Positions 6,814 through 25,931 of a DNA stretch of 64,000 bases are shown in pieces. The translations under genes and the position numbers were made by a program. Position 1 is the first letter of the stretch. The number at the start of each line of letters is the position of its first letter. Where the stretch lies: positions 70,394 to 134,393 of the forward strand of contig CBEVQO010000006.1 in assembly GCA_965552055.1 (NCBI GenBank), in the 5' to 3' direction. The stretch is from an uncultured bacterium (lineage in GTDB: Bacteria > Hydrothermota > UBA3073 > NMUJ01 > CBEVQO01). Under the pieces are notes generated by a model, which was not told where the DNA came from, made no database searches, and saw only the letters and a list, made by a program, of their open reading frames with translations.

Positions 6814-7128
6814 GGGGGCGAAAAGGATTCGACGGGGGTGACCGCAGCAGGAGGAGCACGCCGGGAGGGGTCCCGTAAACCCTTAAATAAGTGCGGAGTA
6901 TGCCTGGGCTGCATAAGGGCTAGCCCCTGAACCGACGCCCATAGGTTCAGGGGGACGGGTATGGGCTCTTCTGCTACCCTTGACCCCGGGGTGGCAGAGA
7001 AATCCAGGGGTCTGGCTCTGCACTACCGTGCCCCATCCGGGGTGCAGGGCGAGATTAAAGATGGGGCTAAGCGTGTAGTGCCCCTGTTGTGGCACTCTCG
7101 GACGTGGGTTCGATTCCCACCGCCTCCA
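6814..7128 (+). ncRNA. ssrA: tmRNA; tag (A)AEYAWAA at 6893-6916
   Basis: 5' GGGGGCGAAAAGGATTCGACGGG, 3' T-arm GTGGGTTCGATTCCCAC and CGCCTCCA with G3:U70 pair; tag ORF after AAATAAGT. Confidence 0.96.
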
Positions 7129-7129
7129 T

Positions 7130-7201
7130 GCCCCCGTAGCTCAATGGTAGAGCGACGGGCTGTTAACCCGGAGGTTGCAGGTTCGAATCCTGCCGGGGGC
7201 G
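7130..7201 (+). tRNA. tRNA-Asn (GTT)
   Basis: Cloverleaf GCCCCCG/CGGGGGC, loop CT-GTT-AA, TTCGAAT; CCA not encoded. Confidence 0.95.
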
Positions 7202-7202
7202 T

Positions 7203-7275
7203 GCCCCTGTAGCTCAATTGGAAGAGCGTCGGACTTCGGATCCGATTGCTGTGGGTTCGAGTCCCACCAGGGGTG
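7203..7275 (+). tRNA. tRNA-Arg (TCG)
   Basis: Cloverleaf GCCCCTG/CAGGGGT, TCGGA-CT-TCG-GA-TCCGA; CCA not encoded. Confidence 0.95.
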
Positions 7276-8315: not shown

Positions 8316-9178
8316 TGGAAAAATTTATATCCGAATTTTTAATCTATATGGATGGAAAAGGCTCCAGTCCTCATACTCTTATTAACTATGAAAGTGATCT
8401 TAAAAACTTTGCAGATTTTTTGAAAACAAAAAGGATTAAAGATGTAAAAAAGATATCACCTTCAATAATCCGCGAATATATAATGGAACTCTATTCTCTT
8501 TCCATGAGTAAAAGTTCAATTCAAAGAAAAATATCGTCATTAAAGTCTTTTTTCAAATTTTTGTTGAGACGCAAGATAATAGAGAAAAATCCGATGTCAG
8601 ATATAAAAACGCCAAAAAAAGAAAAAAAATTGCCAGAATATGTATCGGAAAAAGAAATGGAAAAACTTTTTGATTTGCCAAATGTTTCTCTCCGTGATAG
8701 AGCGATACTCGAGCTTTTGTATGCTACAGGCATGCGAGCATCCGAACTCATCAGATTGAATGTGAAGGATATCGATTTCAATAGAGGAGAAGTAAAGGTT
8801 CTTGGCAAAGGCAGAAAAGAAAGGATAATTCCGCTCACAGAGAAAGCTAAAGAAATTCTTAAAATGTATCTCGAAAAAGAAGGACGAATTGATAATCTTA
8901 ATTCTCCTTTATTTTTAAGTAAAAGGAAAAAAAGATTAAGTCAAAGGACATTGCAAAGGATAGTAAAAAAATATTTGCAGATGGTATCCGAAGTCAAAAG
9001 AAAGAGTCCCCATGTTATAAGACACACTTTTGCTACTCATTTGCTTCGTGCAGGTTGCGATATAAGGACTATAAAGGAACTGCTGGGTCATTCTTCAATA
9101 TCCACTACGGAAATTTACACCCATATTTTGCCTGATAAAATTTTTGAAGTTTATAAAAGAGCGCATCCGAGAGCATGA
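8312..9178 (+). CDS. xerC: tyrosine recombinase XerC/XerD
   Basis: RDRAILELLYATGMR, HVIRHTFATH, LLGH, C-terminal HPRA. Confidence 0.88.
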   Translation: MMEKFISEFLIYMDGKGSSPHTLINYESDLKNFADFLKTKRIKDVKKISPSIIREYIMELYSLSMSKSSIQRKISSLKSFFKFLLRRKIIEKNPMSDIKTPKKEKKLPEYVSEKEMEKLFDLPNVSLRDRAILELLYATGMRASELIRLNVKDIDFNRGEVKVLGKGRKERIIPLTEKAKEILKMYLEKEGRIDNLNSPLFLSKRKKRLSQRTLQRIVKKYLQMVSEVKRKSPHVIRHTFATHLLRAGCDIRTIKELLGHSSISTTEIYTHILPDKIFEVYKRAHPRA

Positions 9179-9873
9179 TTTATCTTCTTTTGATAATGTT
9201 ATTAAAGGTTGACTGGGGAAGAGATGAAGGAATTTTTGAAAATCCTGCAACATCAATGGAAGGTGTTCTTTTTTCCTATCAAAGATTATTTAATGTCATA
9301 GATTTATTTCAAATAGATTATGGTGGAAAATTTGGAGATACAAAAATTGGTGCAGGAATTGAAGCTTTGACCGAAAGTCCTTATAATGAGTTAACACTTT
9401 CTTTTTCTTATGGTAGATTTATTCACGGATTATTATGGGGAGCAGGTTTTAATTATTATTTTGTTAACTGTGAAGAATATGGGACAGGTGGAGCAATAGG
9501 ATTAAATATGGGGATAAAATATCAGAGAAGTAACTGGGATTTTCATTTTTCAATATTAAATTTCAATTCTCCCCATTTGTGGAAGTCGGAAATACCTGTA
9601 AAAATTGTTGGAAAAGCAGGTGCAAAAATTACAGACAGATTTTATTTTTCAATTTATTCTTTAAAGGAAGGTGGCTTTCCACTCGATGTCCATTATTCTG
9701 TAAATGCAAAATTATCTGAGATTATAAATTTGAGATTTCGAATTGGCACAAATCCTGTTTCTTTTGGCATTGGTTTTAATTTTCTCTATAATAAAATGTG
9801 TTTCGATTTCTTTTTCAGGTTTAATCAATTTCTTGGATTTTCGGAAATCATAACGATTAAACATTCATTATGA
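9175..9873 (+). CDS. putative outer-membrane beta-barrel (PorV/PorQ-like)
   Basis: signal-like N-terminus, IFENPA motif, alternating aromatic beta-strands. Confidence 0.5.
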   Translation: MIYLLLIMLLKVDWGRDEGIFENPATSMEGVLFSYQRLFNVIDLFQIDYGGKFGDTKIGAGIEALTESPYNELTLSFSYGRFIHGLLWGAGFNYYFVNCEEYGTGGAIGLNMGIKYQRSNWDFHFSILNFNSPHLWKSEIPVKIVGKAGAKITDRFYFSIYSLKEGGFPLDVHYSVNAKLSEIINLRFRIGTNPVSFGIGFNFLYNKMCFDFFFRFNQFLGFSEIITIKHSL

Positions 9874-11660
9874 TTTATGTTTTTTTATTTCTTTTTGGGA
9901 TTCAGGAATTTGAAACGGAAACTCCTCTTCCCGAAGACCTTGCAGAAATTTTAGCAGAACTTAAAGAAAATCCAGTAGATATAAATAGGGCAAATGTAAA
10001 GGAGTTACAAAAGATTCCATGGATTGATGAGAGACTTGCGAGAAACATTGTGAAATACAGGAAAAAAAGACCTTTCAAAAGGAAAGAAGATTTGCTAAAG
10101 GTAAAAGGTATGTCTATGCCGATTTTGGTTAAAATTTCTCCTTATATAAAAGTGGGTAAAATAAGCGTAATAAGGGTGAAGAAAAGGAAAAAGCCATTTT
10201 TAAAACAAAGATTCAGGATAAAAGTAAAAGATGGTGAATATAAATCTTATTATAAATTGCAGATTTTCAGGGAAAATCTAAAAGCATTTTTATTATCCGA
10301 TGAAGACCCCGAAGAAAATGGTGTTGTAAATTATCTTACTGGAAAATCAGAAAAATTTGTCCCGGATTACCTGAATTTTGGAGTGCAGATAGAAAATCTT
10401 TATAATCTTGATAAAATAATAATAGGTGCATATACTCTTTCATTTGGCGAAAGACTGGTATTGGGCTCACCTGCGATGTCTGTAAAAGGCACAGGTCTTG
10501 TTAAGTCAAAAGAAAAAGGTGCTTTGTTATATGCCCTATCAGGAGAAAATCTCGGATTGTTCGGACTATGTATGCAGGGAAATATAAAAAGAGTCCTCAC
10601 ATCTTATTTATTTCTTTCACTTAATAAAATTGATGGTGAAATAGAGGATAACAAAATAGTGCCTTATTTTCTTTACGAAGCAGACCATTCCACAATTTCT
10701 GGTGAAGAAAGGAAAGATGCTTTAACAGAAGGATTAATGGGTTTTAGAGCAGAATATCGTAAAATGAATAAAAAATTTGGCTTAACTTTTTATTATTCGC
10801 AAATCGTGAAAGATACTTTTACATTGAAAAACTATCCTGTTGGTTTAGATTATCTTTTTGATTATGATGATTATAGAATTTTTGGAGAATTTGGCTATTC
10901 AAAATCTTTTGCAAATATCACTGGCTTTGAATATTCCTATAAATCTATCGCTATTCGCTTTCTTTATCGTAATATTCCATATAATTACACATCTCCACAT
11001 GCATCTCCTTTTACCGATAAAAAGCCAGATAAAGAAGGGAGGATATCCGATAAAGGATTTTACATAGAAACAGAATTTAAAACAAAGAAATTCGGCATTC
11101 TTGCATATTTTGATGTATTTTCGTATCCCCAAGCTGTTGGAAAATATTTGATGCCGATGATGGCAGGATTTGAAAGAAGAATTATAGCAAACTTTAAGCC
11201 ATCAAAAGGAATAGAATTGCAGATTAATTTTAAGTTTAAACAAAAAGATAATGTTAAAGCAGAATGGAAAAGGTTCGAGTTTTCTTTTTCACCTCTCCCC
11301 CATCTTTCTTTCGATTTTAGAAGCGAAATAATGAAACAAGTTTCTGACAAAGTAGAAAAAGGAGATTTATCTTTTGTTGGTATAAGATATTCATTTGGTA
11401 AATTTTATCTTAAATCAAGGTATATTCTTTTTGATGTTGAACCGTCTTATCCATGGAAAATTTATGAATTTGAAGATGAAATTCCCGGCAGTATGACTAC
11501 AATGGGCTTGTCAGGCGAAGGTAAGCGCTTTTATTTTGTTTTTGGAATAAAAATAATGAAAAATCTCTCATTTCATTCAAAATTTGGAATAACAGAAAAA
11601 TGTGGAGAACCTTTAAGCACATCTTTAAGTTTACAATTAGATAATGTATTTTATCAATGA
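9870..11660 (+). CDS. ComEA-type helix-hairpin-helix domain plus C-terminal beta-barrel protein
   Basis: PVDINRANVKELQKIPWIDERLARNIVKYR..FKRKEDLLKVKGM; beta-rich C-terminus. Confidence 0.75.
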   Translation: MIYVFLFLFGIQEFETETPLPEDLAEILAELKENPVDINRANVKELQKIPWIDERLARNIVKYRKKRPFKRKEDLLKVKGMSMPILVKISPYIKVGKISVIRVKKRKKPFLKQRFRIKVKDGEYKSYYKLQIFRENLKAFLLSDEDPEENGVVNYLTGKSEKFVPDYLNFGVQIENLYNLDKIIIGAYTLSFGERLVLGSPAMSVKGTGLVKSKEKGALLYALSGENLGLFGLCMQGNIKRVLTSYLFLSLNKIDGEIEDNKIVPYFLYEADHSTISGEERKDALTEGLMGFRAEYRKMNKKFGLTFYYSQIVKDTFTLKNYPVGLDYLFDYDDYRIFGEFGYSKSFANITGFEYSYKSIAIRFLYRNIPYNYTSPHASPFTDKKPDKEGRISDKGFYIETEFKTKKFGILAYFDVFSYPQAVGKYLMPMMAGFERRIIANFKPSKGIELQINFKFKQKDNVKAEWKRFEFSFSPLPHLSFDFRSEIMKQVSDKVEKGDLSFVGIRYSFGKFYLKSRYILFDVEPSYPWKIYEFEDEIPGSMTTMGLSGEGKRFYFVFGIKIMKNLSFHSKFGITEKCGEPLSTSLSLQLDNVFYQ

Positions 11661-12353: not shown

Positions 12354-13750
12354 TAGAAAAATCGATTCCCGAGCTTCATAATCTTTTAAAAGAGAAAAAA
12401 ATTTCGGCAAAAGAATTAGTCAGTGAAAATTTGAGAAAAATTAGAGAGAGTGATTTAAATTGTTATATTTCTGTATTTGAAGAAGATGCTTTAAAGATAG
12501 CAGAAGAGATTGATAAAAATGGCAAATTTGAACATTTATTGACAGGGATACCTGTTGCTGTTAAAGATAACATTTGTGTCGCCGGTCATCCTACTACCTG
12601 TGCTTCACGCATACTTGAGGATTTTGTTCCACCCTATGATGCTACGGCGGTAGAAAGGTTAAAGAAATGTGGTGCGATAATTATCGGCAAAACAAATCTT
12701 GATGAATTCGCAATGGGTTCGTCCACTGAATATTCTGCATTTTTCAGGACATTAAATCCGAAGGACAAAGAAAGGGTACCTGGCGGTTCGAGTGGGGGTT
12801 CTGCTGCTGCTGTTGCAGGTGGGGTAGCTGTTTGTGCACTTGGTTCAGATACAGGTGGCTCTGTTCGTCAGCCTGCTTCTTTTTGCGGAATTTTGGGACT
12901 TAAGCCAACATATGGCAGGGTGTCGAGATTTGGACTTGTAGCTTTTGCATCTTCTCTTGACCAGATTGGACCCATGGGAAGAACATGTGAGGATATTGCG
13001 ATTTTACTGAGTGTAATCTCAGGCAAAGATGTAAGAGATATGACATCCGCAGATGTGGAAGTGCCTGACTATTATAAAAATTTGAAGAAAGAAGGAAAAG
13101 GACTTAAAGCTGGCATTCCAAAAGAATATTTTGAAGGTGCCGATGAGAGAGTTTTAAAAGTGTTGGAAGAGCGGATTGAAGATTTAAAAAAGAGGGGGGT
13201 CAATGTAGTGGAAATAAGTTTAAAATATACTGAATATGCTATCCCTACTTATTATTTAATTTCATCTGCTGAAGCTTCTTCGAACCTTGCGAGATACGAT
13301 GGAATAAGATATGGATTAAGGGTAGAGAAAGGAGAGCTTTTTGAGCTTTACTGTGAAACAAGGGCAAAGGGTTTTGGTAAAGAGGTCAAAAGGCGTATTA
13401 TGCTGGGCACTTTTGGTTTGCAGGCAGGTTATTATGATGAATATTATTTAAAAGCGTGTAAAGTTCGTGAATTGATAAAAAGAGATTTTTTGAAAGTATT
13501 TGAAAATGTAGATTTTATTTTAACTCCTACCTCTCCCTTCCCTGCTTTTAAATTTGGAGAGAAATTAGATGACCCGATAAAGATGTATCTGTCAGATATT
13601 TATACTGTTGGTGTAAGTTTAGCGGGTTTACCTGCTCTTTCCTGTCCTGTTGGTGATGTAAATGGTCTTCCTGTGGGCTTACAGATAATAGGCAAGCATT
13701 TTTCTGAGCAAAAAATTTTAAATTTTGCAAAATTTTTACTTGACAGATGA
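12341..13750 (+). CDS. gatA: Asp/Glu-tRNA amidotransferase subunit A
   Basis: VKDN, PGGSSGGSA, GSDTGGSVRQPA, SSNLARYDG. Confidence 0.97.
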   Translation: MGNLIEKSIPELHNLLKEKKISAKELVSENLRKIRESDLNCYISVFEEDALKIAEEIDKNGKFEHLLTGIPVAVKDNICVAGHPTTCASRILEDFVPPYDATAVERLKKCGAIIIGKTNLDEFAMGSSTEYSAFFRTLNPKDKERVPGGSSGGSAAAVAGGVAVCALGSDTGGSVRQPASFCGILGLKPTYGRVSRFGLVAFASSLDQIGPMGRTCEDIAILLSVISGKDVRDMTSADVEVPDYYKNLKKEGKGLKAGIPKEYFEGADERVLKVLEERIEDLKKRGVNVVEISLKYTEYAIPTYYLISSAEASSNLARYDGIRYGLRVEKGELFELYCETRAKGFGKEVKRRIMLGTFGLQAGYYDEYYLKACKVRELIKRDFLKVFENVDFILTPTSPFPAFKFGEKLDDPIKMYLSDIYTVGVSLAGLPALSCPVGDVNGLPVGLQIIGKHFSEQKILNFAKFLLDR

Positions 13751-13767
13751 GATATTTGCTATAATAT
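13740..13767 (+). promoter_or_regulatory. promoter upstream of flgM-motAB
   Basis: TTGACA 13740-13745 with TATAAT (N14) or TAATAT (N16); AGGAGG RBS before 13826. Confidence 0.5.
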
Positions 13768-13825: not shown

Positions 13826-14113
13826 ATGGATGTAAGAAGGATAGAAGGCTTTGGACCGCATGAGATTTCACAGGAGCCCCAGAAGGCGAAACATTTGCGT
13901 ACGGAAAAACTGAAAGATAAAGTTGAGATTTCGAAGAAAGGCAAAGAATATGGAAGAATTTTCAGAAAAGCGCTCGATGAGCTTAAAAGAATTTATCCTG
14001 TGAAGGAGAAAAAGCTGGAAGAAGTGAGGCTGAGAATCGCCGAGGGCTTTTATGATAAACCAGAAATTAAGGAAAAAGTAGCCTCTGAATTAATTTCCAG
14101 GGGCATCCTGTGA
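13826..14113 (+). CDS. flgM: FlgM-like anti-sigma-28 factor
   Basis: DKVEIS..EKKLEEVRLRIAEGFY pattern, 95 aa. Confidence 0.65.
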   Translation: MDVRRIEGFGPHEISQEPQKAKHLRTEKLKDKVEISKKGKEYGRIFRKALDELKRIYPVKEKKLEEVRLRIAEGFYDKPEIKEKVASELISRGIL

Positions 14114-14964
14114 AAGAAAGAAGGAAAATCGATGTAGCAACATTATTCGGTATTATAGGAGGATTAACATTAGTATTTTTTGCGATAATAAAAAGGGGTC
14201 AGGCGATAGGGACTGCGTTACCACGGGGGATACTCGGTGCTTTTGCTGACCCTGTTTCTGAAGTTACTTCCATTCTTATAACAGTTGGAGGCACATTTGC
14301 CGCTGTTTTTGTTAATTATCCGATTCAAACCGTTGGAAGGATGTTTAAAGTTATGGCAAGAGCTTTGTTTTCAACGGAGCAGGACCCAACTGATGTTATC
14401 GAGCAGCTCATTAAATTCTCGAGAATCGCGAGAAAAGAAGGACCTCTTGCACTTGAGAGAGAATTAAAACATGTTGAAAACAAATTTTTAAAGAGAGCGA
14501 TACAACTTGTTGTTGATGGAGCTTCTTCTGATCGAATTCGTGCCGAATTGTATACTGAAATTAATTTTATGCGTGAGCGTCATAGAATAGGTCAAGAAAT
14601 GTTTCAGATGCTAGGAACTTATTGTCCTGCATTTGGCATGCTTGGCACAATAATAGGTCTTATAATGCTTTTGGGTTCTGTTCAGAATCCTTCCCAGGTG
14701 ACCGCTGGTATGTCTGTTGCTCTTTTAACCACATTCTGGGGAGTTCTTATGGGTTACCTCATTTTCCTGCCGATTGCAGGTAAATTGAAGAGGCGCTCCG
14801 ATGAAGAAGCTTTTATAAATCAAATAATCATTGAAGGTGTTTTATCAATACAGGCAGGAGAGAACCCTATGATAATGGAAGGCAAGCTAAAAGCTTATCT
14901 TGCTCCTCATCTGCGAGAAATACTTGCCAAGCGTAAAAGAATTAGAGTCCCTCTGGTTAAATAA
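14110..14964 (+). CDS. motA: stator A subunit MotA/PomA
   Basis: ARKEGPLALE, PAFGMLGTIIGL, VALLTTFWG, IQAGENP. Confidence 0.92.
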   Translation: MKERRKIDVATLFGIIGGLTLVFFAIIKRGQAIGTALPRGILGAFADPVSEVTSILITVGGTFAAVFVNYPIQTVGRMFKVMARALFSTEQDPTDVIEQLIKFSRIARKEGPLALERELKHVENKFLKRAIQLVVDGASSDRIRAELYTEINFMRERHRIGQEMFQMLGTYCPAFGMLGTIIGLIMLLGSVQNPSQVTAGMSVALLTTFWGVLMGYLIFLPIAGKLKRRSDEEAFINQIIIEGVLSIQAGENPMIMEGKLKAYLAPHLREILAKRKRIRVPLVK

Positions 14965-16433
14965 TGTTATCAAGAAGGTCACCACAGCCTCCTCCTTCAC
15001 TTGTAGAAGGTGAAACAATAGGAATAAGGGGTGCTCCACCCTGGCTTACGACATACGCCGATTTGATGACCCAAATTCTCATCTTCTTTGTAGCATTTTT
15101 TGCATTAACTCCAGTAATGGAAGAGGCTCAAATTCATCAGGTTAAGAAGAAGCTTCAAAAATTTTTAACAGAAAAAGGTTATAGCGAAATGGTTGATGTA
15201 ACTTTAAATGAGAAAGGACTTGTTTTATCGTTAAAAAGCGAATACATGTTTGACCCGGGAAGTGCCGATTTGAAGCCCAGAGCAAAAAGAGTTTTATCCG
15301 ACATCATTGAGTTTCTAAAACTTGTACCCAATAAGATACGAATCGAAGGTCACACCGATAATTTACCTCTCGTGGGCAGGATAAGGGAAAAATTTCCAAC
15401 AAACTGGGAGCTATCGGATGCCCGTGCTACCAATATTCTGCGTTATTTCGTTGAAGAAAAGAATTTCCCTCCTTACAGGGTATCAGGTGCAGGATTTGCC
15501 GAATGGCAACCAAAAGTTACTTTAGCAGAAGCTATAAAATGGGTTGACAGTAATATCCCAAAACTGAAGAAATATAAGTATAAATTTCTGGCGATATTAA
15601 GTAGAACACTGGAAGTAAAAGCCAATAACACAAAGAAACTTCTCGATAAGAAAAAAGATGAAATTTTGAAATTTCTTATTGTTCCGGAATATGGATATAA
15701 CGAAGGTGGCTGGATGGAGATTCTTCGTGGCAGTCTCTACAAAGAAATAGGCAGGAAAAAAGCGGACAAACTTCTTGATAGCTTAAGGGTAATAGAATTA
15801 AAATTACTAAACGATTTTAACAATGAAAGGTATCGTGAGCTTGTAAAAAAGATGAACTTAAATGAAGATTTAAGGAAGTTTAACCGGCGTGTTGAGATTG
15901 TGATAGAGCGATTTGGCACTCCCATTTTGCGTGGCACCCGTGCAACTCTTTTAAAAGGTATCGCTGTTTATGGAGAGAAAGTAAATGTAAATTTAGCAGG
16001 AATGGACGAATTAAAAGACCTACCCGGATTTAATGAGAAGATCGCAAGTGAAATCATAAATTACAGGGATGGTGAAAATCATCTATTTAAATCACCCGAA
16101 GATATTGCTAAAGCAATAAAAGAGAGCGCGTTACGGGACTCGGTGGAGAAGCTATGTAAAACTGTATTAGCACCGATACTCACAACTAAACTCAATCTTA
16201 ATGAAGCAAAGGAAGAAGATATAAGTCATCTTATATTTAAAGCAAAAGAAGCAAAAGTTATCACGGGATATGGGACAATAGAAAGTAGATTGTCTGAAAC
16301 TATTGTAGCACTAAGAAAAGAAGTAGGTGGATTTGAGGATTTAAAGCAAATTGAGAATTTGTTAAAGGAAAGGGGTGAAAAGGAGTTAGCAAAAGCATTC
16401 AATGACCTTCGTCCCTATTTTTGTGTTGAATAA
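14964..16433 (+). CDS. motB: MotB/PomB with OmpA domain insertion and two C-terminal ComEA-like HhH domains
   Basis: WLTTYADL TM, EGHTDN, NWELSDARA, NRRVEI; VNVNLAGMDELKDLPGF and LNLNEAKEED..FEDL..LRPYFCV. Confidence 0.85.
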   Translation: MLSRRSPQPPPSLVEGETIGIRGAPPWLTTYADLMTQILIFFVAFFALTPVMEEAQIHQVKKKLQKFLTEKGYSEMVDVTLNEKGLVLSLKSEYMFDPGSADLKPRAKRVLSDIIEFLKLVPNKIRIEGHTDNLPLVGRIREKFPTNWELSDARATNILRYFVEEKNFPPYRVSGAGFAEWQPKVTLAEAIKWVDSNIPKLKKYKYKFLAILSRTLEVKANNTKKLLDKKKDEILKFLIVPEYGYNEGGWMEILRGSLYKEIGRKKADKLLDSLRVIELKLLNDFNNERYRELVKKMNLNEDLRKFNRRVEIVIERFGTPILRGTRATLLKGIAVYGEKVNVNLAGMDELKDLPGFNEKIASEIINYRDGENHLFKSPEDIAKAIKESALRDSVEKLCKTVLAPILTTKLNLNEAKEEDISHLIFKAKEAKVITGYGTIESRLSETIVALRKEVGGFEDLKQIENLLKERGEKELAKAFNDLRPYFCVE

Positions 16434-16746
16434 ATTTTTTACCCTTTAGGTTCATCAATTTTTGGGCAATTTCTCTCACATATTTATTGGTTGAATACTT
16501 CAATCTGAATAAAATTTCGTCTTCCGGTAATTCGAGTGTTCTCTTATCGATATTGAATTTTTTAATTTCGAGTGCTGTCTGATATGCTTCTACGAGTTTC
16601 TGAAAATCTTCCTCTGCTGTTGGTGATTTATTGTGGTCTGGATGACATTTCAAAGCTTTCTTTTTGAATGCTATTTTAATCTCTTCAATTGAAGCTGATT
16701 CACTTATTCCCAGTATTTTGAATGGGTTTTGCATTTTCTTTTCCAT
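16399..16746 (-). CDS. small J-domain (DnaJ) protein
   Basis: NPFKILG..KCHPDHN..FQKLVEAY. Confidence 0.88.
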   Translation of the reverse strand: MEKKMQNPFKILGISESASIEEIKIAFKKKALKCHPDHNKSPTAEEDFQKLVEAYQTALEIKKFNIDKRTLELPEDEILFRLKYSTNKYVREIAQKLMNLKGKKFIQHKNRDEGH

Positions 16747-18172
16747 AATCTTTTATTTCAATCGAATGCTGTGCTCCTGTATCCATGTCCCTTGCACTTA
16801 CTTTTAAGATGCCGTTAGCATCTATTGTAAAAGTTACCTCGATTCTTGGCTCACCTGCTTTAGCGAGCCTTATTCCTTTCAGTTCGAAATATCCTATAGA
16901 TACATTTTTTGATGCCTTGTCCGATTCTCCCTGTAGCACATGTATTTTTACACTTGTTTGATTATCGGCTACAGTGGTAAATATCCTTGAATTTGAAGTT
17001 GGTATTACGGTATTTCTCGGTATTATCGGTGCGAAGCCATCGTTTTCTATTTCTACTCCGAGTGTAAAAGGTGTGACATCTATTAGCACCACATCTTCCA
17101 ATTCGTTTTCAATAATTGCTGCCTGTATTGCTGCACCCAATGCCACGCACTCATCTGGATTTATATCCCTGACAGGCTCCTGACCTTCTAAAAATTCTCT
17201 CAGCTTACGGCGAACCGCTGGTACACGGGTTGAACCACCTACCAGTATCGCAATATCAATATCTTTCTTGTCAATCTGTGCATCATTTAAAGCACTTTCC
17301 GCAGGAGGTATTAGCTTTTCTAACAGGTCAGATATTAAATCCTCAAAAAGTTCCCTTGTTATCTCCATATCAAGGTGTTTTGGTCCTGTTTCATCTGCTG
17401 TTATAAAAGGCACGCTTATGTGCGCTGTTTCTTCTTCTGATAAAGTTATTTTTGCCTGCTCCGATGCCTCTTTTAACTTCTGGAGAGCAGCTTTATCTTC
17501 TGAGAGGTCTATCCCTGTCTCTTCCTTATACTTCTCAATGACATACTCCATTATTCTCTGGTCAAAATCTTCTCCTCCCAGTTTATTATTTCCGCAACTT
17601 GCTTTTACTTCAAAAACACCTTCACCTACTTCAAGCACCGATACATCATAAGTGCCTCCTCCGATGTCAAATACAATGACATTCTTTATCCCTTCGCGCA
17701 TATTTAATCCGTAAGCCAGGCATGCTGATGTAGGCTCGTTAATCATTCTGATGACATTAAGACCCGCGAGTTCTGCGGATTCTTTGACCTCTTCTCTTTG
17801 CTTTTCATTAAAATATGCAGGCACAGTGATTACACAGTCTTTTACTTCTTCATTTAGAAAATGTTCAGCATCTTCTTTTAATTTGCGAAGTATTATGGAA
17901 GCAATCTGTGGAGCGGTATATTTTTCTCCATCTACTTCGAATACGAAATTTTGACCCATAAATCTTTTTATTGCGAAAACAGTTCTATCTGCGTTTACAA
18001 TCCTCTGAGCCTTGGCGGGTTCACCTACCAGTATTTTATCTTTTAAAAAGCAAACAGCAGAAGGCGTTAATCTATTTCCTCTTCTATTTGGTATTATTTC
18101 AGGATGACCATTTCTAAAAATTGCAATGCTTGAATTTGTTGTCCCGAAATCTATGCCAACAATTTTGCCCAT
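16700..18172 (-). CDS. Hsp70/DnaK paralogue lacking the helical lid
   Basis: GIDFGTTNS, TVPAYF, DIGGGTYD, DVVLIDVTP linker; ends at 490 aa after SBD-beta. Confidence 0.9.
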   Translation of the reverse strand: MGKIVGIDFGTTNSSIAIFRNGHPEIIPNRRGNRLTPSAVCFLKDKILVGEPAKAQRIVNADRTVFAIKRFMGQNFVFEVDGEKYTAPQIASIILRKLKEDAEHFLNEEVKDCVITVPAYFNEKQREEVKESAELAGLNVIRMINEPTSACLAYGLNMREGIKNVIVFDIGGGTYDVSVLEVGEGVFEVKASCGNNKLGGEDFDQRIMEYVIEKYKEETGIDLSEDKAALQKLKEASEQAKITLSEEETAHISVPFITADETGPKHLDMEITRELFEDLISDLLEKLIPPAESALNDAQIDKKDIDIAILVGGSTRVPAVRRKLREFLEGQEPVRDINPDECVALGAAIQAAIIENELEDVVLIDVTPFTLGVEIENDGFAPIIPRNTVIPTSNSRIFTTVADNQTSVKIHVLQGESDKASKNVSIGYFELKGIRLAKAGEPRIEVTFTIDANGILKVSARDMDTGAQHSIEIKDYGKENAKPIQNTGNK

Positions 18173-20310
18173 GGTTTCCTTCTTAACATTTTCGATGCAA
18201 CTTTCACAAGCTCTGGAACATCTAAAATCAATGCTACTCTACCATCGCCCCTTATTGTTGCACCAGTAACATAAGGAGCTGCCCTCGCATGTTTTGATAA
18301 GGGCTTTTTAACTATTTGCTCCTGACCTATTAACTCGTCCACCTCCAGTGCAGCCAGTTTCTCACCCTCCTGCACTATTACCATGTATCTACCAAAGGAT
18401 GTGTCTTTTTCTCTTTTCTCAAATTTCAATTCAAGTAATTCATCGAGTTTTATAACAGGGATTATTTTATCGAGATATCTTAGCACTTCTTTTCCTTCCA
18501 TTGTAGCGATATCATCATCAAAAGCTTTTACAGTTTTGTAAATTGAAGATATAGGTATTGCATAACATTCGGTTCCAACTTTTACAACAAGTGATTTTAC
18601 TATTGCGAGGGTTTTTGGGAAAATTAATCTGAATTTTGTTCCCTTATCTTTTTCTGTTTCGATTTCGACATTTCCACCGAGTTGCTCAACATTTGCTTTT
18701 ACAACATCCATACCAACGCCCCTTCCGGACATGTCATCAACTGTTTTGGCAGTGGAGAAACCAGGTTCGAATATAAACTCGATTATTGAGCGCTCATCTA
18801 GTGATTCTGCTTCCTTTTCGGATATTAAGCCCTTTTCAATTGCCTTACGCTTTACCTTTTCGATATCTATGCCCCTGCCGTCATCCGCTACTTCTATCAC
18901 AACATTTTCACCCTCTGCATAGGCAGCTAATGTAATCTTACCTATGGGAGGTTTGCCCTTTTTCACCCTCTCTTCTTCCGACTCAATTCCATGGTCTATG
19001 CAATTTCTTATCATATGCACAAGGGGGTCTTCTATGTTCTCTATCACTGTCTTATCAAGGGTTGTTGATTCTCCTGTTATTTCGATTTGCACCTTTTTAT
19101 TCCTTTTTCTGGCAATATCTCTTACAATGCGTGGAAAACGATTGAAAACTCTTTGAACGGGTAACATTCTTGCATCCATAACAAGATGTTGCAACTCTTC
19201 GATTAATCTTTCTGTTTCACCCAGCACCGCTCCAAACCTTATTATCGCAGGGTCTTCATATTTTCTCTCAAGCTGGTCATGAATATCTCTCAATGCATTA
19301 TATCTCAACATCAGCTCACCCATCAGGTTCATTAAATCATCGAGTAAATTCACATTTATTCTTACTGTCTCTTCTACCTTGCGTTTAAGAGAAGGTTCTA
19401 CTTTCTTCTGGGCTTCTGGTTTTACTTCTACTTTTTCTTCTTTTTTCTCCTTTATTTCTTCTTTTTTCAAAATTTTATCCAGTTTTTCGATCAATGCAGA
19501 TGTATCCACTTCATCTACTCGATTTTCTTTTACAAGTTCAACCATTACACGCAGTTTATCAAACGATTCAAGAAGTACATCTACCATTTCGGGTGACAGT
19601 TTTAGTTCTCCTTCTCTCAATTTGTTAAATACATCTTCAAGTTTATGACTTAAATTTGACATCTTTTCTAATCCCAGGAATGCGGAAGAGCCTTTTATTG
19701 TGTGTGCAACTCTAAATATTTCGTTTAAAAGATTTGGGTCATCGGGATTTTTTTCGAGTTCGATTAAGATTTCATTTACTCTTTCAAGTAATTCCCTTGA
19801 TTCTGTTATGAATTCATTTATTATATCACCGAGTTCCTGAGCCGTTAGACCTGATTCAACTTTCTCTTCCTTTTCTACTCTTTCCTCTTTTTTTTCCCTT
19901 TCCTCTTTTTTTTCTTTTTTTTCTTTTTTTTCGTGTAATGTTTCTTCGAGTTTCTTTTCGAGTTCGGAGGTATCTGTTTCTGTTTTGCCTTTTTCAGCCA
20001 CTTCTTCTATCAGTTTTTTCAGCATATCTATTCCTTCAAATATTATGTCGAGTATTTCTGGTGTTGGTTTTAATTTACCGTCCCTTATAGCTCCCAGCAG
20101 GTCTTCTACTTTATGGCTAAATTCCGACAGCTGATTTAATTCCAGGAAAGCGGCAGACCCTTTTATCGTGTGAGCAGCTCTAAATATCTCGTTTACCAGC
20201 GATATATCTTCTGGTGATTTTTCGAGTTCCACCAGCTTTTGTTCGGCATTTTCGAGCAGTTCCCTTGATTCTTGTACGAACTCTTTTATTATTTCGTCCA
20301 TTTCGCCCAT
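18151..20310 (-). CDS. cheA: chemotaxis histidine kinase with two HPt domains
   Basis: FRAAHTIKGS and FRVAHTIKGS, RNCIDHG, DDGRG, SGRGVGMD, CheW domain. Confidence 0.95.
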   Translation of the reverse strand: MGEMDEIIKEFVQESRELLENAEQKLVELEKSPEDISLVNEIFRAAHTIKGSAAFLELNQLSEFSHKVEDLLGAIRDGKLKPTPEILDIIFEGIDMLKKLIEEVAEKGKTETDTSELEKKLEETLHEKKEKKEKKEEREKKEERVEKEEKVESGLTAQELGDIINEFITESRELLERVNEILIELEKNPDDPNLLNEIFRVAHTIKGSSAFLGLEKMSNLSHKLEDVFNKLREGELKLSPEMVDVLLESFDKLRVMVELVKENRVDEVDTSALIEKLDKILKKEEIKEKKEEKVEVKPEAQKKVEPSLKRKVEETVRINVNLLDDLMNLMGELMLRYNALRDIHDQLERKYEDPAIIRFGAVLGETERLIEELQHLVMDARMLPVQRVFNRFPRIVRDIARKRNKKVQIEITGESTTLDKTVIENIEDPLVHMIRNCIDHGIESEEERVKKGKPPIGKITLAAYAEGENVVIEVADDGRGIDIEKVKRKAIEKGLISEKEAESLDERSIIEFIFEPGFSTAKTVDDMSGRGVGMDVVKANVEQLGGNVEIETEKDKGTKFRLIFPKTLAIVKSLVVKVGTECYAIPISSIYKTVKAFDDDIATMEGKEVLRYLDKIIPVIKLDELLELKFEKREKDTSFGRYMVIVQEGEKLAALEVDELIGQEQIVKKPLSKHARAAPYVTGATIRGDGRVALILDVPELVKVASKMLRRKPWAKLLA

Positions 20311-20318
20311 TTTGCCTC

Positions 20319-20672
20319 CTATTTCATCAATAGACTTTTGACTTTAAATTTCAAAAGATGTCCAGGAACAGGCTTCACAAGATATAAATTTGCACCTGCC
20401 CTGTATGCTCTCTCGGCTTCGTTCGGCTGTGTTGTAAGCATTATTATCGGTATATCCGCATCCTTTTCCCTTATTGCCTTTGTCAATTCAATTCCATCCA
20501 TCCTCGGCATATTAAGGTCAACTATCATCAGATGTATCTCCTCTGTTGCCCATTTTTCCAGTGCTTCTATACCATCCGATGCCTCGATTATGTTGAAATC
20601 CTCATCCTGTAGCATTCTCGCTACCATCTTTCTTACAACCGCAGAGTCATCTACAACAAGTATGTTATACAT
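20319..20672 (-). CDS. cheY: single-domain response regulator
   Basis: VVDD, DLNMP, LTT, KP. Confidence 0.85.
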   Translation of the reverse strand: MYNILVVDDSAVVRKMVARMLQDEDFNIIEASDGIEALEKWATEEIHLMIVDLNMPRMDGIELTKAIREKDADIPIIMLTTQPNEAERAYRAGANLYLVKPVPGHLLKFKVKSLLMK

Positions 20673-20675
20673 TTC

Positions 20676-21512
20676 CTACTCCTTCTTATATCCAAAAGCT
20701 TTTTTAAAAAACACAAGTTTAAAAGCCCTTGTAACATCGTGCAAAGATTCTGCATGCCCCAGCAAAAGGTATCCACCAGGTTTCAATTTTTCATAAAATT
20801 TGCGAACAACTTCCCTTTTTGAATTTAAATCAAAATAAATAAGGACATTTCTACAAAATATCACATCCTGTTTCTCAATCAGTTGTATCGCAATTTTATC
20901 ATTTAAATTCAGATATTTAAAATCAACGAGTCTTCTAATATCCGGACGCACTTCAAAGAAGCCATTTTCATGTCTCAGGAAATATGTCCTTTTATAGTAG
21001 TCAAGGGTAAACCTCAGAGAATCGCTTTTATAAATCCCCTTTTTTGCTTTTTCCAGTGCAGTTCTGTTTATGTCCGTTGCAAGTATTTTTACATCCCAGA
21101 ATTTTATTTCGTTACCCATTTTCTCATTTACCAGTATTGCGATGGTATAAGGTTCTTCACCTGTAGCACATCCAGCAGACCATATTCTTATTTTTTTTTC
21201 TCTTTCATTTCTTTTCATAATCTCAGGCAGTATTTCATCTTTAAATGCCTCATTCTGGGGTTCTTCACGGAAAAAATAGGTCTCCCCTATTGTTACTATC
21301 TCAAAAAGCTTCTGCATCTCCCTGTATCTCCCTGAATCGTATTTTAAATAGAAGTAATATTCCTCAAACGATTTAAGCCCGAGTTCCTTTAATCTTTGAG
21401 ATAATTTCATCTCAAGGTAATATTTTTTTGTATCGGGAAAAAATATTCCGCTCTCCTTGTATATCAGGTCTCTAATTTCTTTAAAGGTATTGGTATCGAG
21501 TGCGGTTTTCAT
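20676..21512 (-). CDS. cheR: chemotaxis methyltransferase
   Basis: ETYFFRE, WSAGCATGEEPY, IFCRNVLIYF. Confidence 0.95.
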   Translation of the reverse strand: MKTALDTNTFKEIRDLIYKESGIFFPDTKKYYLEMKLSQRLKELGLKSFEEYYFYLKYDSGRYREMQKLFEIVTIGETYFFREEPQNEAFKDEILPEIMKRNEREKKIRIWSAGCATGEEPYTIAILVNEKMGNEIKFWDVKILATDINRTALEKAKKGIYKSDSLRFTLDYYKRTYFLRHENGFFEVRPDIRRLVDFKYLNLNDKIAIQLIEKQDVIFCRNVLIYFDLNSKREVVRKFYEKLKPGGYLLLGHAESLHDVTRAFKLVFFKKAFGYKKE

Positions 21513-22729
21513 TCTTTACTTTCTAATCTCTTTATCACCTCCATTGCTATCTTTCTCACTTCTGCGTCAGGACTCTCTTTAAAATCGATAATTTCTTTTA
21601 CCGTATCTTTATCCCCTATTATCCCGATGGTTCTGAGACCTGCAATCTGTAAGGGTATGGATGGACGCTTCACCAGTTTCAAAACATGTTTTAAAGCTTC
21701 TTTTATCCTCAATTTACCAATCTGTTCTACTGCACGATATTTATGCCAGATATCAAAATTTTCATCTTCAAGAATGTTTATCAATACTCTTGCCAATCTC
21801 TTTTTCTCCACAGGGTCTATTTGTGATAAATCTTCTTTTTGTATTATTTCAAGGATAGCCGTGTAAATCATTCTCTGTATATCTTCGAGTTCATCGTATT
21901 TGCTCATGAGAATATTAACAGACTTATATGTTCCCTTTTGCATTAAAGCCTCAATCAAAGCAGATATCACCCAGTTATCCTGTTCTTCCATCAACCTTTC
22001 TTTTAGCCATTCTTCCACTTTCTCCTCTTCACAATTTAGCAAACCATGTATTGCTGCACATCTTACATTTGGATGCGTATCCCTTAGCTGCTGCAATAAG
22101 AAAGGAACAGCTTCTTTACCAGCATATTGCAATAAATCTGTTAAAAAAATCCTCAAATTGGTATCATCTGATTTCAGATAAGTAGCAATAGTTTTCAATT
22201 CCTTTTTTTCTTTTAGCATTTCCTGTAATATCTCAAAAGCCATCGATCTTTTGGTTGCATCTTCTTTTTGCAAAATTCTTATACAATTTTCAACAACATA
22301 GTCATTGCCTATTTTCGAAAGATTTATTATTGCATTCTCCTGCAAACCCTTATTATCGGAATTCAAAAATGAAAATAAAATATCTATAGCCTCCTTCGTG
22401 CCTATTTCACAAAGATTATTGCATAACATCATTTTCTCATCTAAATTTAAATCCTTCTCCATTTCTTTCAATTTTTCGAGCACCTTCTTTTTTATCTTTT
22501 CATCGGCTTCATAGATAGATATCCCTGCGATATCTTCCGACAGGAAATCTACTTTCCCTTTAATTTTTATATCCTCAAATTCTCCTTCGATTATGCTTCC
22601 TTCACTTACTTTGTCTTCAATGTAAAAACTCGCAGTAATTCTAAACTTTTCTTCAAATTCCTTTGCTTCTTTTACATTCCTCAATTTTCCGAGTAATGGA
22701 TAAATTTTATCTTCAAAAATCTTTTTCAT
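21509..22729 (-). CDS. HEAT-repeat protein, possible degenerate N-terminal PilZ-like barrel
   Basis: repeated L.D....VR..A..AL units. Confidence 0.75.
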   Translation of the reverse strand: MKKIFEDKIYPLLGKLRNVKEAKEFEEKFRITASFYIEDKVSEGSIIEGEFEDIKIKGKVDFLSEDIAGISIYEADEKIKKKVLEKLKEMEKDLNLDEKMMLCNNLCEIGTKEAIDILFSFLNSDNKGLQENAIINLSKIGNDYVVENCIRILQKEDATKRSMAFEILQEMLKEKKELKTIATYLKSDDTNLRIFLTDLLQYAGKEAVPFLLQQLRDTHPNVRCAAIHGLLNCEEEKVEEWLKERLMEEQDNWVISALIEALMQKGTYKSVNILMSKYDELEDIQRMIYTAILEIIQKEDLSQIDPVEKKRLARVLINILEDENFDIWHKYRAVEQIGKLRIKEALKHVLKLVKRPSIPLQIAGLRTIGIIGDKDTVKEIIDFKESPDAEVRKIAMEVIKRLESKE

Positions 22730-23745
22730 AATGCATCTATGATTGCCTCTGGTATTTTTTCCAGTGGTAAAATTTTATCTGCAAGATTTTCTTCTATCAC
22801 AGCTCTTGGCATACCGAACACCACACTTGTTTTCTCATCCTGTGCAATTATTATTCCTCCTTTCTCTTTTATAGCTTTCGCACCTCGCACACCATCATTC
22901 CCCATACCCGTTAGAATTATACCTACCGAATTGGAACGAAAAACTTCACCAACAGATTCCATCATGACATCAACAGAGGGTCTATAAAGAGTATTTGGCG
23001 TTTTGGATAACTGTATCACGACATCTTTTAACACCCTTTTCACCGTTAAATGAGAATTGCCGGGAGCTATATATACATGTGAAGGCTCTGCACGCATGCC
23101 ATCTTCTGCTTTTACCACATTTAACTGACTTAATTTATTTAAACGCTCAGCAAACAATTTTATAAAAGCATCGGGCATATGCTGAGTAACAAAAATGGGA
23201 GACGGAAAATCACCGGGTAAACTTCGCAAAATCGTCTCTATGGCTGAAGGTCCGCCTGTCGAAGCTCCTATCGCTACTCCCTTCTCTCCTTCTACTTTAA
23301 ACTCTCTCTTTATAACTTTTGGTTCACCCGATACCTTTACAACACCTTTCCTTGCTATCGCTTTTACTTTCTCTATTATTTCTTTCTCCTTCTTCAAAAC
23401 ATCAAGAGGGCTCCTTAAAATATCCTTATAAATAACATCTGCTGCTCCTGCCTCGAAAGCTTCGAAAGTAATTTGTGCACCTTCGTATGTCAATGCACTT
23501 ATCACAACCACGGGTACGGGATGCTCTCTCATTATCCTTTTCAAAGTTTCTATGCCACCCATTCCCGGCATATCAAGGTCGAGTGCTATAATATCTGGAT
23601 TCAGTTCTCTGTATTTCTCGAGGCATTCTTCTCCTGTTCCTGCTGTCCCTACTACTTTTATCTCCGGGTCGCTTTCGAGCATCGAGGTTATAGCTTTTCG
23701 CATAAAAGCAGAATCATCCACTACCATTACTTTTATCTTCCTCAT
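22726..23745 (-). CDS. cheB: chemotaxis methylesterase
   Basis: receiver domain plus GASTGGP, QHMP, LTGMGNDG. Confidence 0.96.
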   Translation of the reverse strand: MRKIKVMVVDDSAFMRKAITSMLESDPEIKVVGTAGTGEECLEKYRELNPDIIALDLDMPGMGGIETLKRIMREHPVPVVVISALTYEGAQITFEAFEAGAADVIYKDILRSPLDVLKKEKEIIEKVKAIARKGVVKVSGEPKVIKREFKVEGEKGVAIGASTGGPSAIETILRSLPGDFPSPIFVTQHMPDAFIKLFAERLNKLSQLNVVKAEDGMRAEPSHVYIAPGNSHLTVKRVLKDVVIQLSKTPNTLYRPSVDVMMESVGEVFRSNSVGIILTGMGNDGVRGAKAIKEKGGIIIAQDEKTSVVFGMPRAVIEENLADKILPLEKIPEAIIDAL

Positions 23746-24224
23746 TTAACAACCTCCTTCAGTTTTTCTTTTTCTGCTGGAGTAAGCAATCTATCGAGGT
23801 CCAGTAAAATTATAAGACCTTCATCTAGCCTGCAAATACCGCTTATGTATTCCGATTCAATACCGGCAATTATCGGGGGCGAGGGCTCTATTTGATCCTG
23901 ATAAATCCTTTTTACACCTGTTACTTCATCTACCATAAAGCCAACCATTGAATCGTCTTCCAGCCTGTAGTCTATTACTCTTGTGTACTTGTCAGATGGC
24001 TTGGGCTCAAACCCCAATCTTCTCCTCAAATCAACCACAGGTAATATCCTGCCCATTCTGTTTACCACACCGATAATATAATCGGGAGCCTTGGGCACTT
24101 TTGTAACCTCATCTTCTTTGAAACGATTTATCCTATCTACTTTATGAACATTTATCCCGAATTCCTCATTCTTTAACTTAAAAGTAACAAGCTGTATCTC
24201 TTTTCCTGCTTTAACTTCTTCCAT
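23742..24224 (-). CDS. cheW: chemotaxis coupling protein
   Basis: QLVTFKL, VPKAPDYIIGVVN, GFMVDEV. Confidence 0.93.
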   Translation of the reverse strand: MEEVKAGKEIQLVTFKLKNEEFGINVHKVDRINRFKEDEVTKVPKAPDYIIGVVNRMGRILPVVDLRRRLGFEPKPSDKYTRVIDYRLEDDSMVGFMVDEVTGVKRIYQDQIEPSPPIIAGIESEYISGICRLDEGLIILLDLDRLLTPAEKEKLKEVVK

Positions 24225-24233
24225 AATGCCCTC

Positions 24234-25901
24234 CTACTCAACCAATTTAATCTCTTTAATTCCTTCAAAATTTATTCCCTCTAATTTTCTGTGTAAATCT
24301 TCTACTTTTTGTGAAAATTCCATCAATATACTCATTATTTCCCTAATTTTTGTAGCGTTTTCTTTTGATAGCAAAGAAATAGCCTCAATTTTCTTTGACA
24401 CTTCATTTGCAGCAGTTGATTCTTCCTGGGATGCTATTGCAATTTGTGTCATTACTTCATTCATCAATTTCGCTCCTTCCATTATCTTATCGAGACTCTC
24501 GCTTGTTTCTCTTGCCAGTATAGTAGCTTCATCGGATACTTTTGTAGATTCTTCCATAGCCCTTGCGGAATTCTCGGCTTCCTTTTTAATCTGCTCAATT
24601 ATTTCTATTATCTTAGTTGTAGCATTCCTCGAGCTATCAGCAAGTTGTTTTATTTCATCCGCTACAACAGAAAAACCTTTACCATATTCCCCTGCTCTCG
24701 CAGATTCTATTGACGCATTGAGTGCAAGTAAATTCGTTTGATCAGCAAGCTGGGTGATTATTTTTGCCATCTCACCTATTTCCTCGCTCCTCTCACCCAA
24801 TGCCATGATATTTTGAGCTGCTACTTTTAATACTTCATTCAAAGCGTTAACTTTCCTTATTGCTTCTTTAACTTTTTTACTGCTTTCTTCTGCTAACATA
24901 AGAGCATTTTGTGTTTCTTCCTGTGTCTTCTGGGCATTTTGAGCAGCTGATAGTATAGTTGAAGACATTTCTTCCATTGCATTAGCAGCATCAGCAGATT
25001 CTGTCTCCTGTTTCGCACTGCTATCAGCTACTTGCCTCACACCTTCAAGTATTTTCTTCGACATATCAACAATTTCCCTAGAAGATAAACTTATCTCAAA
25101 TAAAAGCTTGGAAAAAGTTTCTTTAAAACGACGAGCAGAGCGAAACATATCTTCAAGTAAAGGTAAAGAATCATCACATCTTATCTCATAATTAAATCTA
25201 CCTTCACTCCATTTATCAAATAACTCCTTCACCACAGAAATAGCCTTTCGCATTTTATCAATCTCTTCTTCCAAATTTAATTTTATCTCCTCTATTGACC
25301 TCAACCTCTCTTTAATAACTTCAGCAAATTCCTTCAATAAAATCCCGACTTCCGATACCTCATCATTGCCATCGAACTCCACATTAACCTCGATATCTTC
25401 TTTTAACTCCTTCAAATATCTTTTCATCTTGGTTAATTTATTAAGAACATTCCTTGACATCAATGTAAGCAACCCTATCCCTATAAAGCCTATTATCATC
25501 ACCCACATTCCAAAAGAATTAATCCTTTCTATATTTCTTTCCCCCCATTTTGTCATTTGATTTTCAAATCTATAAATCGATTCTAACAATTCATCTTTCG
25601 TTGTCTTATTTTGCATCACGCTTATCATCTGATTTCTTATTTTCTCGATATTTATTTTCAAAACCTCTGGTGCTTTACCTTCCATTTCTTTTAATTTATT
25701 CAAAATTCTCATATAATCCTCGGTGCTACTTGCATTTTCCAACGCTGATTTCAAAAAAATCAAACTGCTACGATAGCTGGCATAAGTCCGCATAAATGAA
25801 CGCACTCTGTAATTATTAAACAATAATATCAATAAAATAAAAATGCCAAACAAACTTAACTTGAAGGGTTCCTTCTTTAAACTCGACAATACTTTCATCA
25901 T
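24234..25901 (-). CDS. methyl-accepting chemotaxis protein
   Basis: two TM segments, QTNLLALNASIESARAGEYGKGFSVVADEI. Confidence 0.95.
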   Translation of the reverse strand: MMKVLSSLKKEPFKLSLFGIFILLILLFNNYRVRSFMRTYASYRSSLIFLKSALENASSTEDYMRILNKLKEMEGKAPEVLKINIEKIRNQMISVMQNKTTKDELLESIYRFENQMTKWGERNIERINSFGMWVMIIGFIGIGLLTLMSRNVLNKLTKMKRYLKELKEDIEVNVEFDGNDEVSEVGILLKEFAEVIKERLRSIEEIKLNLEEEIDKMRKAISVVKELFDKWSEGRFNYEIRCDDSLPLLEDMFRSARRFKETFSKLLFEISLSSREIVDMSKKILEGVRQVADSSAKQETESADAANAMEEMSSTILSAAQNAQKTQEETQNALMLAEESSKKVKEAIRKVNALNEVLKVAAQNIMALGERSEEIGEMAKIITQLADQTNLLALNASIESARAGEYGKGFSVVADEIKQLADSSRNATTKIIEIIEQIKKEAENSARAMEESTKVSDEATILARETSESLDKIMEGAKLMNEVMTQIAIASQEESTAANEVSKKIEAISLLSKENATKIREIMSILMEFSQKVEDLHRKLEGINFEGIKEIKLVE

Positions 25902-25903
25902 TA

Positions 25904-25931
25904 AAAATAAATGAAGTATTCAATTTGTCAA
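25904..25931 (-). promoter_or_regulatory. che operon promoter TTGACA-N16-TATTTT
   Basis: ATG 25898 lies 5 nt downstream. Confidence 0.45.

Follow-up and report, generated by a model that had tools for sequence, protein, structure and literature searches.

A second motAB pair with a predicted ComEA-fold tail on MotB in a flagellated, uncultured bacterium

What an ion-driven motor of the MotAB type could do with a domain resembling the DNA-binding protein ComEA at the end of its B subunit is the question raised by a gene pair in the window, by which is meant the whole stretch of 64,000 nucleotides that was analysed, from an uncultured bacterium of the phylum Hydrothermota. The pair, placed at 14110..16433 by an earlier sequence-only reading, was confirmed and consists of motA2 (14110..14964, + strand, 284 aa, assigned by Pfam and NCBIfam and by a tree position with 100/100 support) and motB2 (14964..16433, + strand, 489 aa), which overlap by TAATG. 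The stop codon of the preceding gene, flgM (13826..14113, + strand; anti-sigma-28; Pfam FlgM, E 3.1e-5), overlaps the motA2 start (GTGA); its product shares 37-40% identity with FlgM-like ORFs from two relatives in the class and, by a single genome match, it is the sole flgM copy found in the genome. Proteins encoded around the pair are FlgM, GatA, DnaJ-domain and Hsp70 proteins, with flgM and gatA upstream. The adjacency of flgM and motA2 is known in one genome only, and flgM has different neighbours in relatives. An extended -10-like element (TG-n-TATAAT) at 13757..13765 on the + strand was identified by reading the sequence as a candidate promoter of flgM-motA-motB. A promoter scan placed a 10/12 site at 13740-13767, yet returned 7 sites where 9.2 were expected by chance, and this match is not evidence for promoter function. 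Scanning with a sigma-28 pattern found no site before flgM and also none before flagellin and is hence uninformative, and no Rfam element was found near the flgM-motA2-motB2 operon.

The transmembrane (TM) motif WLTTYAD, previously read as carrying an intact aspartate, was found at residues 27-33 of MotB2 and includes Asp33; since the protein has a single hydrophobic segment, all parts after it are predicted to be periplasmic. Pfam matched MotB_plug at residues 25-66, OmpA at 95-184 and HHH_3 in two stretches (54.7 bits). The TM helix, with Asp33 and a glutamine (Gln37) typical of the stator clade described below, is followed by a short helix (together 15042..15218, + strand) and by no canonical plug-linker: Asp33 and Gly85 are 52 residues apart, the position of the plug-linker is a gap in the MotB alignment, and the distance from Asp to OmpA is likewise 52 in 22/22 MotBs of the clade, compared with 82-121 in 26/26 flagellar MotBs. 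The OmpA-like peptidoglycan-binding domain recognised earlier is present, with its main part (residues 76-184) at 15189..15515 on the + strand (Pfam OmpA, E 2e-16), and contains the GHTD and ELS..RA motifs. What had been missed is an interruption of about 113 residues (185-297; 15516..15854, + strand), delimited by alignment with ordinary MotBs, as was the last part of the domain, which resumes near residue 298 with the strand NRRVEIVI (15855..15914, + strand). The insert has a net charge of +10, and neither Pfam nor the Atlas gave a match for it. Owing to the insert, the spacing of the OmpA motifs is 123 in MotB2; it is 75 in 8 clade members and 146-149 in 8 others, compared with 12 in all 78 measurable cases among 209 other MotBs, and the stator clade is thus tolerant of inserts at this site. 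Homology between the MotB2 insert and the clade inserts was not supported, as 277 and 1633 of 2000 shuffles scored as high. The model of whole MotB2 had a pLDDT of 42 and was hence unused, and Atlas scores for the whole protein were below 0.9.

After the OmpA domain, two HhH-like units matching a ComEA pattern had been proposed, of which one is clear and the other weak. Unit 1 (residues 337-407; 15972..16184, + strand) matched Pfam HHH_3 on its own with 40.7 bits (E 2.5e-10), has GFN in place of GIG at its first hairpin, lacks the second hairpin and has a net charge of -3. Unit 2 (residues 408-489; 16185..16430, + strand; net charge -2) has an insertion at the first hairpin and reached 24.3 bits, below the cut-off of 27; a home-made profile gave it 28.6 bits, whereas none of 2000 shuffles scored above 10.1, and it is therefore regarded as a genuine but distorted unit. 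The tail (residues 330-489) was modelled on an alignment of 28 tandem ComEA-like proteins, with a pLDDT of 83.9; given that input, the fold match is partly circular. The best structural match of modelled unit 1 was ComEA (8dss; Z 10.3, rmsd 1.5 over 65 residues), followed by Tex (Z 8.7), 2duy (8.5), PsbU (7.2) and GspK (5.7), the last two values being modest for a helical domain. PsbU and GspK are extracytoplasmic proteins with a ComEA-like fold and partners different from those of MotB2, and neither is known to require DNA binding for its function. No ComEA-family protein was the top structural match of unit 2, which leaves the fold possible there, and a Foldseek structure search returned no match at E <= 0.001. 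As modelled, the fold of the tail is that of ComEA, with the motif eroded.

The extent of this erosion bears on what the tail may bind. Unit 1 shares with ComEA (8dss, 8dfk, 2duy) the fold and the core residues N-x-A, I-x-x-YR and F, but differs in having lost hairpin glycines and the key lysine, in lacking the second hairpin, in being net acidic and in being fused to a stator. The earlier claim of a ComEA pattern thus stands for the fold of unit 1 and is overstated for the motif, because only 1/4 hairpin glycines is kept in each tail unit, compared with 4/4 in the genome's own ComEA, encoded at C6:31010-31387, and 35/390 related units likewise have 1 or 0 of the four. Aligned to 8dfk, unit 1 has Ile360 and Asn357 at the key lysine and glycine positions of ComEA, the correspondence to V. 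cholerae numbering having been made by motif. Extracts of two papers (PMC3879209, PMC9747964) report that K63 and G60 of V. cholerae ComEA and K164 of the B. subtilis protein matter for DNA binding, and in those of the former both HhH motifs are needed, as V. cholerae variants without either appeared to lose DNA binding (PMC3879209). DNA binding by the MotB2 tail is doubtful on these grounds, but the case against it is soft, because in a set of related units picked for likeness to the tail K/R stands at the key lysine position in just 88/375, the genome's own ComEA also lacks it, and 37% are as acidic as the tail units. The ligand of the extra domains would more probably be a protein or a component of the wall than DNA; a ComEA relative is able to bind protein through these motifs, according to part of one report (PMC2601033).

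The same pattern had been noted for the gene at 9870, which lies 2.4 kb upstream of the pair and encodes a predicted outer-membrane barrel protein; its HhH is present but also degenerate (1/4 glycines). Among 11 loci of relatives, degenerate units of this type stand behind comEA in 1 and, in 6, behind a gene which we take to be recA-like. A link of the genes at 9175 and 9870 to two Riemerella transformation genes proved wrong, as the latter are annotated otherwise, one as a carboxypeptidase-regulatory-domain outer-membrane protein and the other as a DUF5689/DUF5017 protein (PMC8459023).

Misassembly as the origin of the fusion was ruled out by one independent contig of 5857 nt, from another run, that spans the whole locus, and by two near-identical MotB2 proteins in the collection searched, one of them from JGI/IMG. 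A match with a 5-nt gap in run X5 was rejected as an allele, since it covers just 35 nt of an unrelated contig and is loose at either end. Strain variants in motB2 were synonymous in 12 of 16 listed cases (P about 0.0003) and those in the tail in 7 of 10 (P about 0.012), with a strong transition bias allowed in both; this excess is suggestive only, because 40 of the 46 rows of variants were covered and there is linkage between sites. Such as it is, it suggests that the tail is maintained under purifying selection. The named holders of the locus are metagenomes from hydrothermal vents and sediments, and no RNA dataset is among the holders listed.

All known instances of the fusion come from a single uncultured species. 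HHH_3 was found in 0/119 other MotB matches, among the best 120 of 121 in one search and likewise among the best 120 of 292 in a second, and MotB or OmpA in 0/149 other matches to the tail (150 of 205 listed). There was no second MotB-HhH fusion among 60 relatives, in 239 loci, or among plasmids or viral contigs, the scans of genomes and metagenomes having covered 12 and 4 of 64 parts, respectively. No description of a MotB with ComEA, HhH or such an extra domain was found in the open-access literature. The view that the architecture is without described precedent therefore held, in that neither sequence nor open-access literature searches produced a second example, and a MotB with a ComEA-like tail appears to be undescribed.

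To which motor the pair belongs was approached through phylogeny. MotA2 is a flagellar-type A subunit without a cytoplasmic tail, and its closest MotA is P0276, from a 2.6-kb contig and 65% identical; the nearest MotAs, some of them named Elusimicrobiota, are 55-65% identical. R108 and E116 in its torque helix align with R in 30/30 and E in 26/30 flagellar MotAs, and presumably correspond to R90 and E98 of E. coli MotA, as assigned by motif since that protein is absent from the alignment; they are weak discriminators, being also present in 18/36 and 31/36 MotAs of the clade, respectively. In a MotA tree from which four long rows were left out, MotA2 falls in a clade of 37 rows with 100/100 support, comprising 21 rows from operons (four of these, L108, L109, L210 and L215, labelled by hand), 15 unlabelled rows and none from a flagellar context. 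The MotB2 core falls, on a long branch (0.6), in a clade of 23 rows (100/99) that includes 20 operon rows. Grouping of MotA2 with the genome's own MotA was rejected (p-AU 0.0008). MotB2 also has the TQ signature of the clade, although TQ alone is seen in some flagellar MotBs as well.

The operons in question are those of a FliF-FliG fusion machine. Pairs of the MotA2B2 clade are carried by 19/23 matched genomes, and a flagellin match was found in 0/19 of these, compared with 8/8 genomes with a flagellar-type MotA; FlhA was absent from the two of the 19 that were tested. Long FliG_C proteins occur in 18/19, and two from clade operons that were scanned both contain FliG_M, FliG_C and TPR, one of them also YscJ_FliF_C. 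A set of 14 clade loci, from 14/19 genomes, was chosen for having the fusion and motA on one contig. In all 14 the fusion gene is followed by the giant coiled-coil gene and then by motA; motB comes directly after motA in 13, and a barrel-TPR gene heads the group in 13. None of these three, barrel-TPR, fusion rotor or giant coiled coil, lies in front of motA2. Part of a preprint on non-flagellated Elusimicrobiota (bioRxiv 10.1101/2022.07.08.499144) describes motAB, flbD and fliG, of unclear role, in such genomes. A related fusion operon is also held by one flagellated genome, G064. Within the host's own phylum a pair of this type was found in 1/272 genomes, which suggests transfer, and a motor lineage of non-flagellated bacteria is the likely source of motA2B2.

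The recipient genome (2.23 Mb, 97% complete, 15 contigs) encodes a complete flagellum, with FliG, FliF, export, rod, ring, hook, flagellin and cap genes, but the pair is not its ordinary stator, since a separate, canonical motAB (263/224 aa) lies beside fliL and fliM in the flagellar cluster. Two of the 22 proteins, which we take to be FliL and FlgN, were without an NCBIfam match. A che operon (chemotaxis genes) lies 1.7 kb downstream of the pair on the other strand. One FliG and one FliF were detected. The fusion and the giant coiled coil were not found in the assembly with profiles from 21 fusion and 14 coiled-coil proteins or by tblastn with 6 of the former and 4 of the latter, all matches being to TPR repeats, to weak coiled coils or to the canonical FliG; the flagellar FliG is thus the sole rotor detected.

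MotA2B2 accordingly shares features with two kinds of motor. With flagellar stators (MotA5B2, PomA5B2 and MotPS, the FIT group in extracts of PMC12505986) it has in common the torque-interface region, conserved MotA TM residues, the MotB TM Asp, the OmpA-like wall-binding domain and a flagellar rotor in the host genome, and its best solved structural relatives are 6ysf, 8ucs and 9ljk. It differs from them in a plug-linker about 30-70 residues shorter, in Gln37 in the TM helix, in the 113-aa OmpA insert and in the 170-aa ComEA-fold tail; the plug-linker is listed as a flagellar hallmark in the same extracts (PMC12505986). With the fusion operons it shares the clade, the TM signature, the 52-residue spacing and the insert site, but its host is flagellated, neither the fusion rotor nor the giant coiled coil was detected, and it follows flgM. 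Within the clade the HhH-like tail occurs in MotB2 only.

In MotA5B2 motors, ions cross at the MotB Asp, and MotA, rotating about a MotB dimer fixed to the wall, pushes on FliG. The sections of PMC11946911 on these motors describe the plug and the anchoring of MotB, which is anchored and static, and present ZorB as plug-less, with gating by anchoring proposed (PMC11946911). The reading given about an even chance is that MotA2B2 is a second, plug-less stator pair acting on the host's flagellar FliG, with the insert and the tail as accessory periplasmic parts. Ions would cross at Asp33, and MotA2 would turn around the wall-anchored MotB2 dimer and push flagellar FliG. Without a plug, the unit would be activated through anchoring or by a partner, along the lines put forward for ZorB, and the insert and the ComEA-fold tail would serve as periplasmic docking or gating parts, setting when or where the unit engages. 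Because MotB is anchored and static, the tail would be placed to sense or to dock and could not reel in DNA. The pair is read as a second flagellar stator because the fusion rotor was not found; counting against this, an assembly that is 97% complete and in 15 contigs could be missing that rotor, and G064 is a flagellated genome that has one. Both points, together with the position of motA behind the fusion and coiled-coil genes at all 14 chosen clade loci, favour instead a pair that serves a FliF-FliG fusion rotor in unassembled DNA, as a flagellum-free envelope motor unrelated to swimming. This is quite unlikely, given the high completeness, the lack of any trace of the N-terminal part of the fusion or of the coiled-coil protein in the assembly, and a pair that lies away from its usual operon and is joined to flgM. 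The rarity of the pair in the phylum, the long MotB branch and the eroded motifs would also fit a transferred, rotor-less orphan that lost its machine and keeps a passenger tail of little function, but the predominance of synonymous variants in motB2, the intact ion-path and wall-binding motifs and the coupled reading frames make this most unlikely.

The remaining explanations give the tail DNA as its ligand. In one, periplasmic DNA would be bound by the tail, alone or together with the basic insert, and the stator unit would thereby be opened, recruited or jammed; flagellar output or ion flow would in this way become coupled to the entry of DNA. The structural match of unit 1 to ComEA, the apparent purifying selection on the tail, the four units that a MotB dimer would present and the degenerate units that adjoin recA-like or comEA genes elsewhere (7/11 relatives' loci) are in its favour, as is the missing plug, which calls for another gate and for which ZorB, in the sections cited above, offers a plug-less sensor as precedent (PMC11946911). 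Set against this are the glycines kept at 1/4 per unit, the net acidic charge, the replaced key lysine, the apparent failure of V. cholerae ComEA without either HhH motif to bind DNA in the extracts of PMC3879209, the partial circularity of the fold match and the restriction to a single species. It is thus unlikely, though worth keeping in play, that the tail gates the stator through DNA, and equally so that tail-bound DNA would switch flagellar torque and the cell alter its swimming on meeting DNA. An uptake motor, one of the two functions suggested by the sequence-only reading, in which MotA2B2 ion flow would pull tail-bound DNA into the periplasm in place of a pilus, is poorly supported and very unlikely. 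ComEC and ComEA are encoded in the genome, and no secretin and, by a crude pattern search, no PilB/PilT or prepilin motif was found there, but ComEA and ComEC are genes separate from the pair, the DNA-contact motif of the tail is eroded, MotB, being anchored to the wall, is the part of a motor that stays fixed, and the operon showed no TonB/TolA-like partner. The nearby HhH-bearing barrel gene at 9870 might be taken to favour uptake; it occurs in 19/21 other genomes of the class, none of which has this stator, and its proximity is therefore likely due to chance. Poorly supported, too, is the other suggested function, a sensor of injected phage DNA repurposed as in Zorya (ZorA5B2), with which the pair shares the 5:2 motor family, a plug-less B subunit and weak ZorB profile matches (E down to 1.6e-14). 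These matches are far weaker than those to MotB, and MotA2, of the FliG-driving type and only 284 aa long, has neither a PADLOC match to ZorA nor its tail, which is essential in type I Zorya according to the same sections of PMC11946911. With 0/6 neighbouring proteins tested matching a Zorya profile, ZorC, ZorD and ZorE included, a Zorya-like role is most improbable.

If the tail did bind DNA, MotA2B2 would act as a stator gated by a ligand, and no described example of such a stator was found. The locus would be a natural swap that has placed a stator of a flagellum-free and as yet uncharacterised motor lineage in a flagellated cell. Should MotA2B2 turn the flagellar FliG, as the second-stator reading has it, the two machines would share a torque interface, and the pair would offer a tractable view of how a stator without a plug is gated.

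Downstream of motB, genes for a short Hsp70 (490 aa, without the usual C-terminal lid length) and a DnaJ-domain protein (115 aa) are paired on the minus strand (16399-18172), between motB and the chemotaxis operon, and this stretch overlaps the end of motB by 35 nt. Within the chemotaxis operon (18151-26362, minus strand) a HEAT-repeat gene sits between cheB and cheR, and an RsbW-like gene lies upstream; the CheA of this operon seems to carry two HPt domains at its N-terminus. Elsewhere in the window, a tmRNA and one tRNA (6814-7275) are located ahead of the patatin-xerC run, and a transposase-like ORF (56031-57059) is presumably of the IS110 type, judging by its motif.

The FliF-FliG fusion, here extended by TPR repeats, was found in operons whose order (barrel-TPR, FliF-FliG-TPR fusion, coiled coil of 1000-1650 aa, motA, motB) is kept across loci L188, L189 and L225-L236, taken from genomes G061, G062 and relatives. 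No flagellin match was obtained in the genomes bearing this operon, and the Arg of the canonical FliG torque helix is absent from the fusion. A different sort of FliG-fusion operon, with motA-motB(-motB), was observed at loci L190, L192, L193 and L237-L239. Three fusion loci occur in G062 and a single one in G064, a KSB1 genome that is flagellated. In flagellated class relatives (L023/L196 and L024/L195; G006, G020) a tandem pair of motB genes comes after motA. Among other MotB-like proteins, P0002 and that encoded at L069:7482-8924 are 473-480 aa long, P0002 having an internal TM segment with an OmpA-like domain on either side, two in all.

Upstream in the window (9175-11660), a PorP/PorQ-like barrel gene is followed by one encoding a predicted 596-aa barrel with a degenerate, basic (+12) HhH at its N-terminus. 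Counterparts of the latter were identified in 19 of the 21 other class genomes, often immediately after comEA or a recA-like gene. This HhH-barrel is a candidate DNA-uptake outer-membrane protein; the genome carrying it gave no secretin match.
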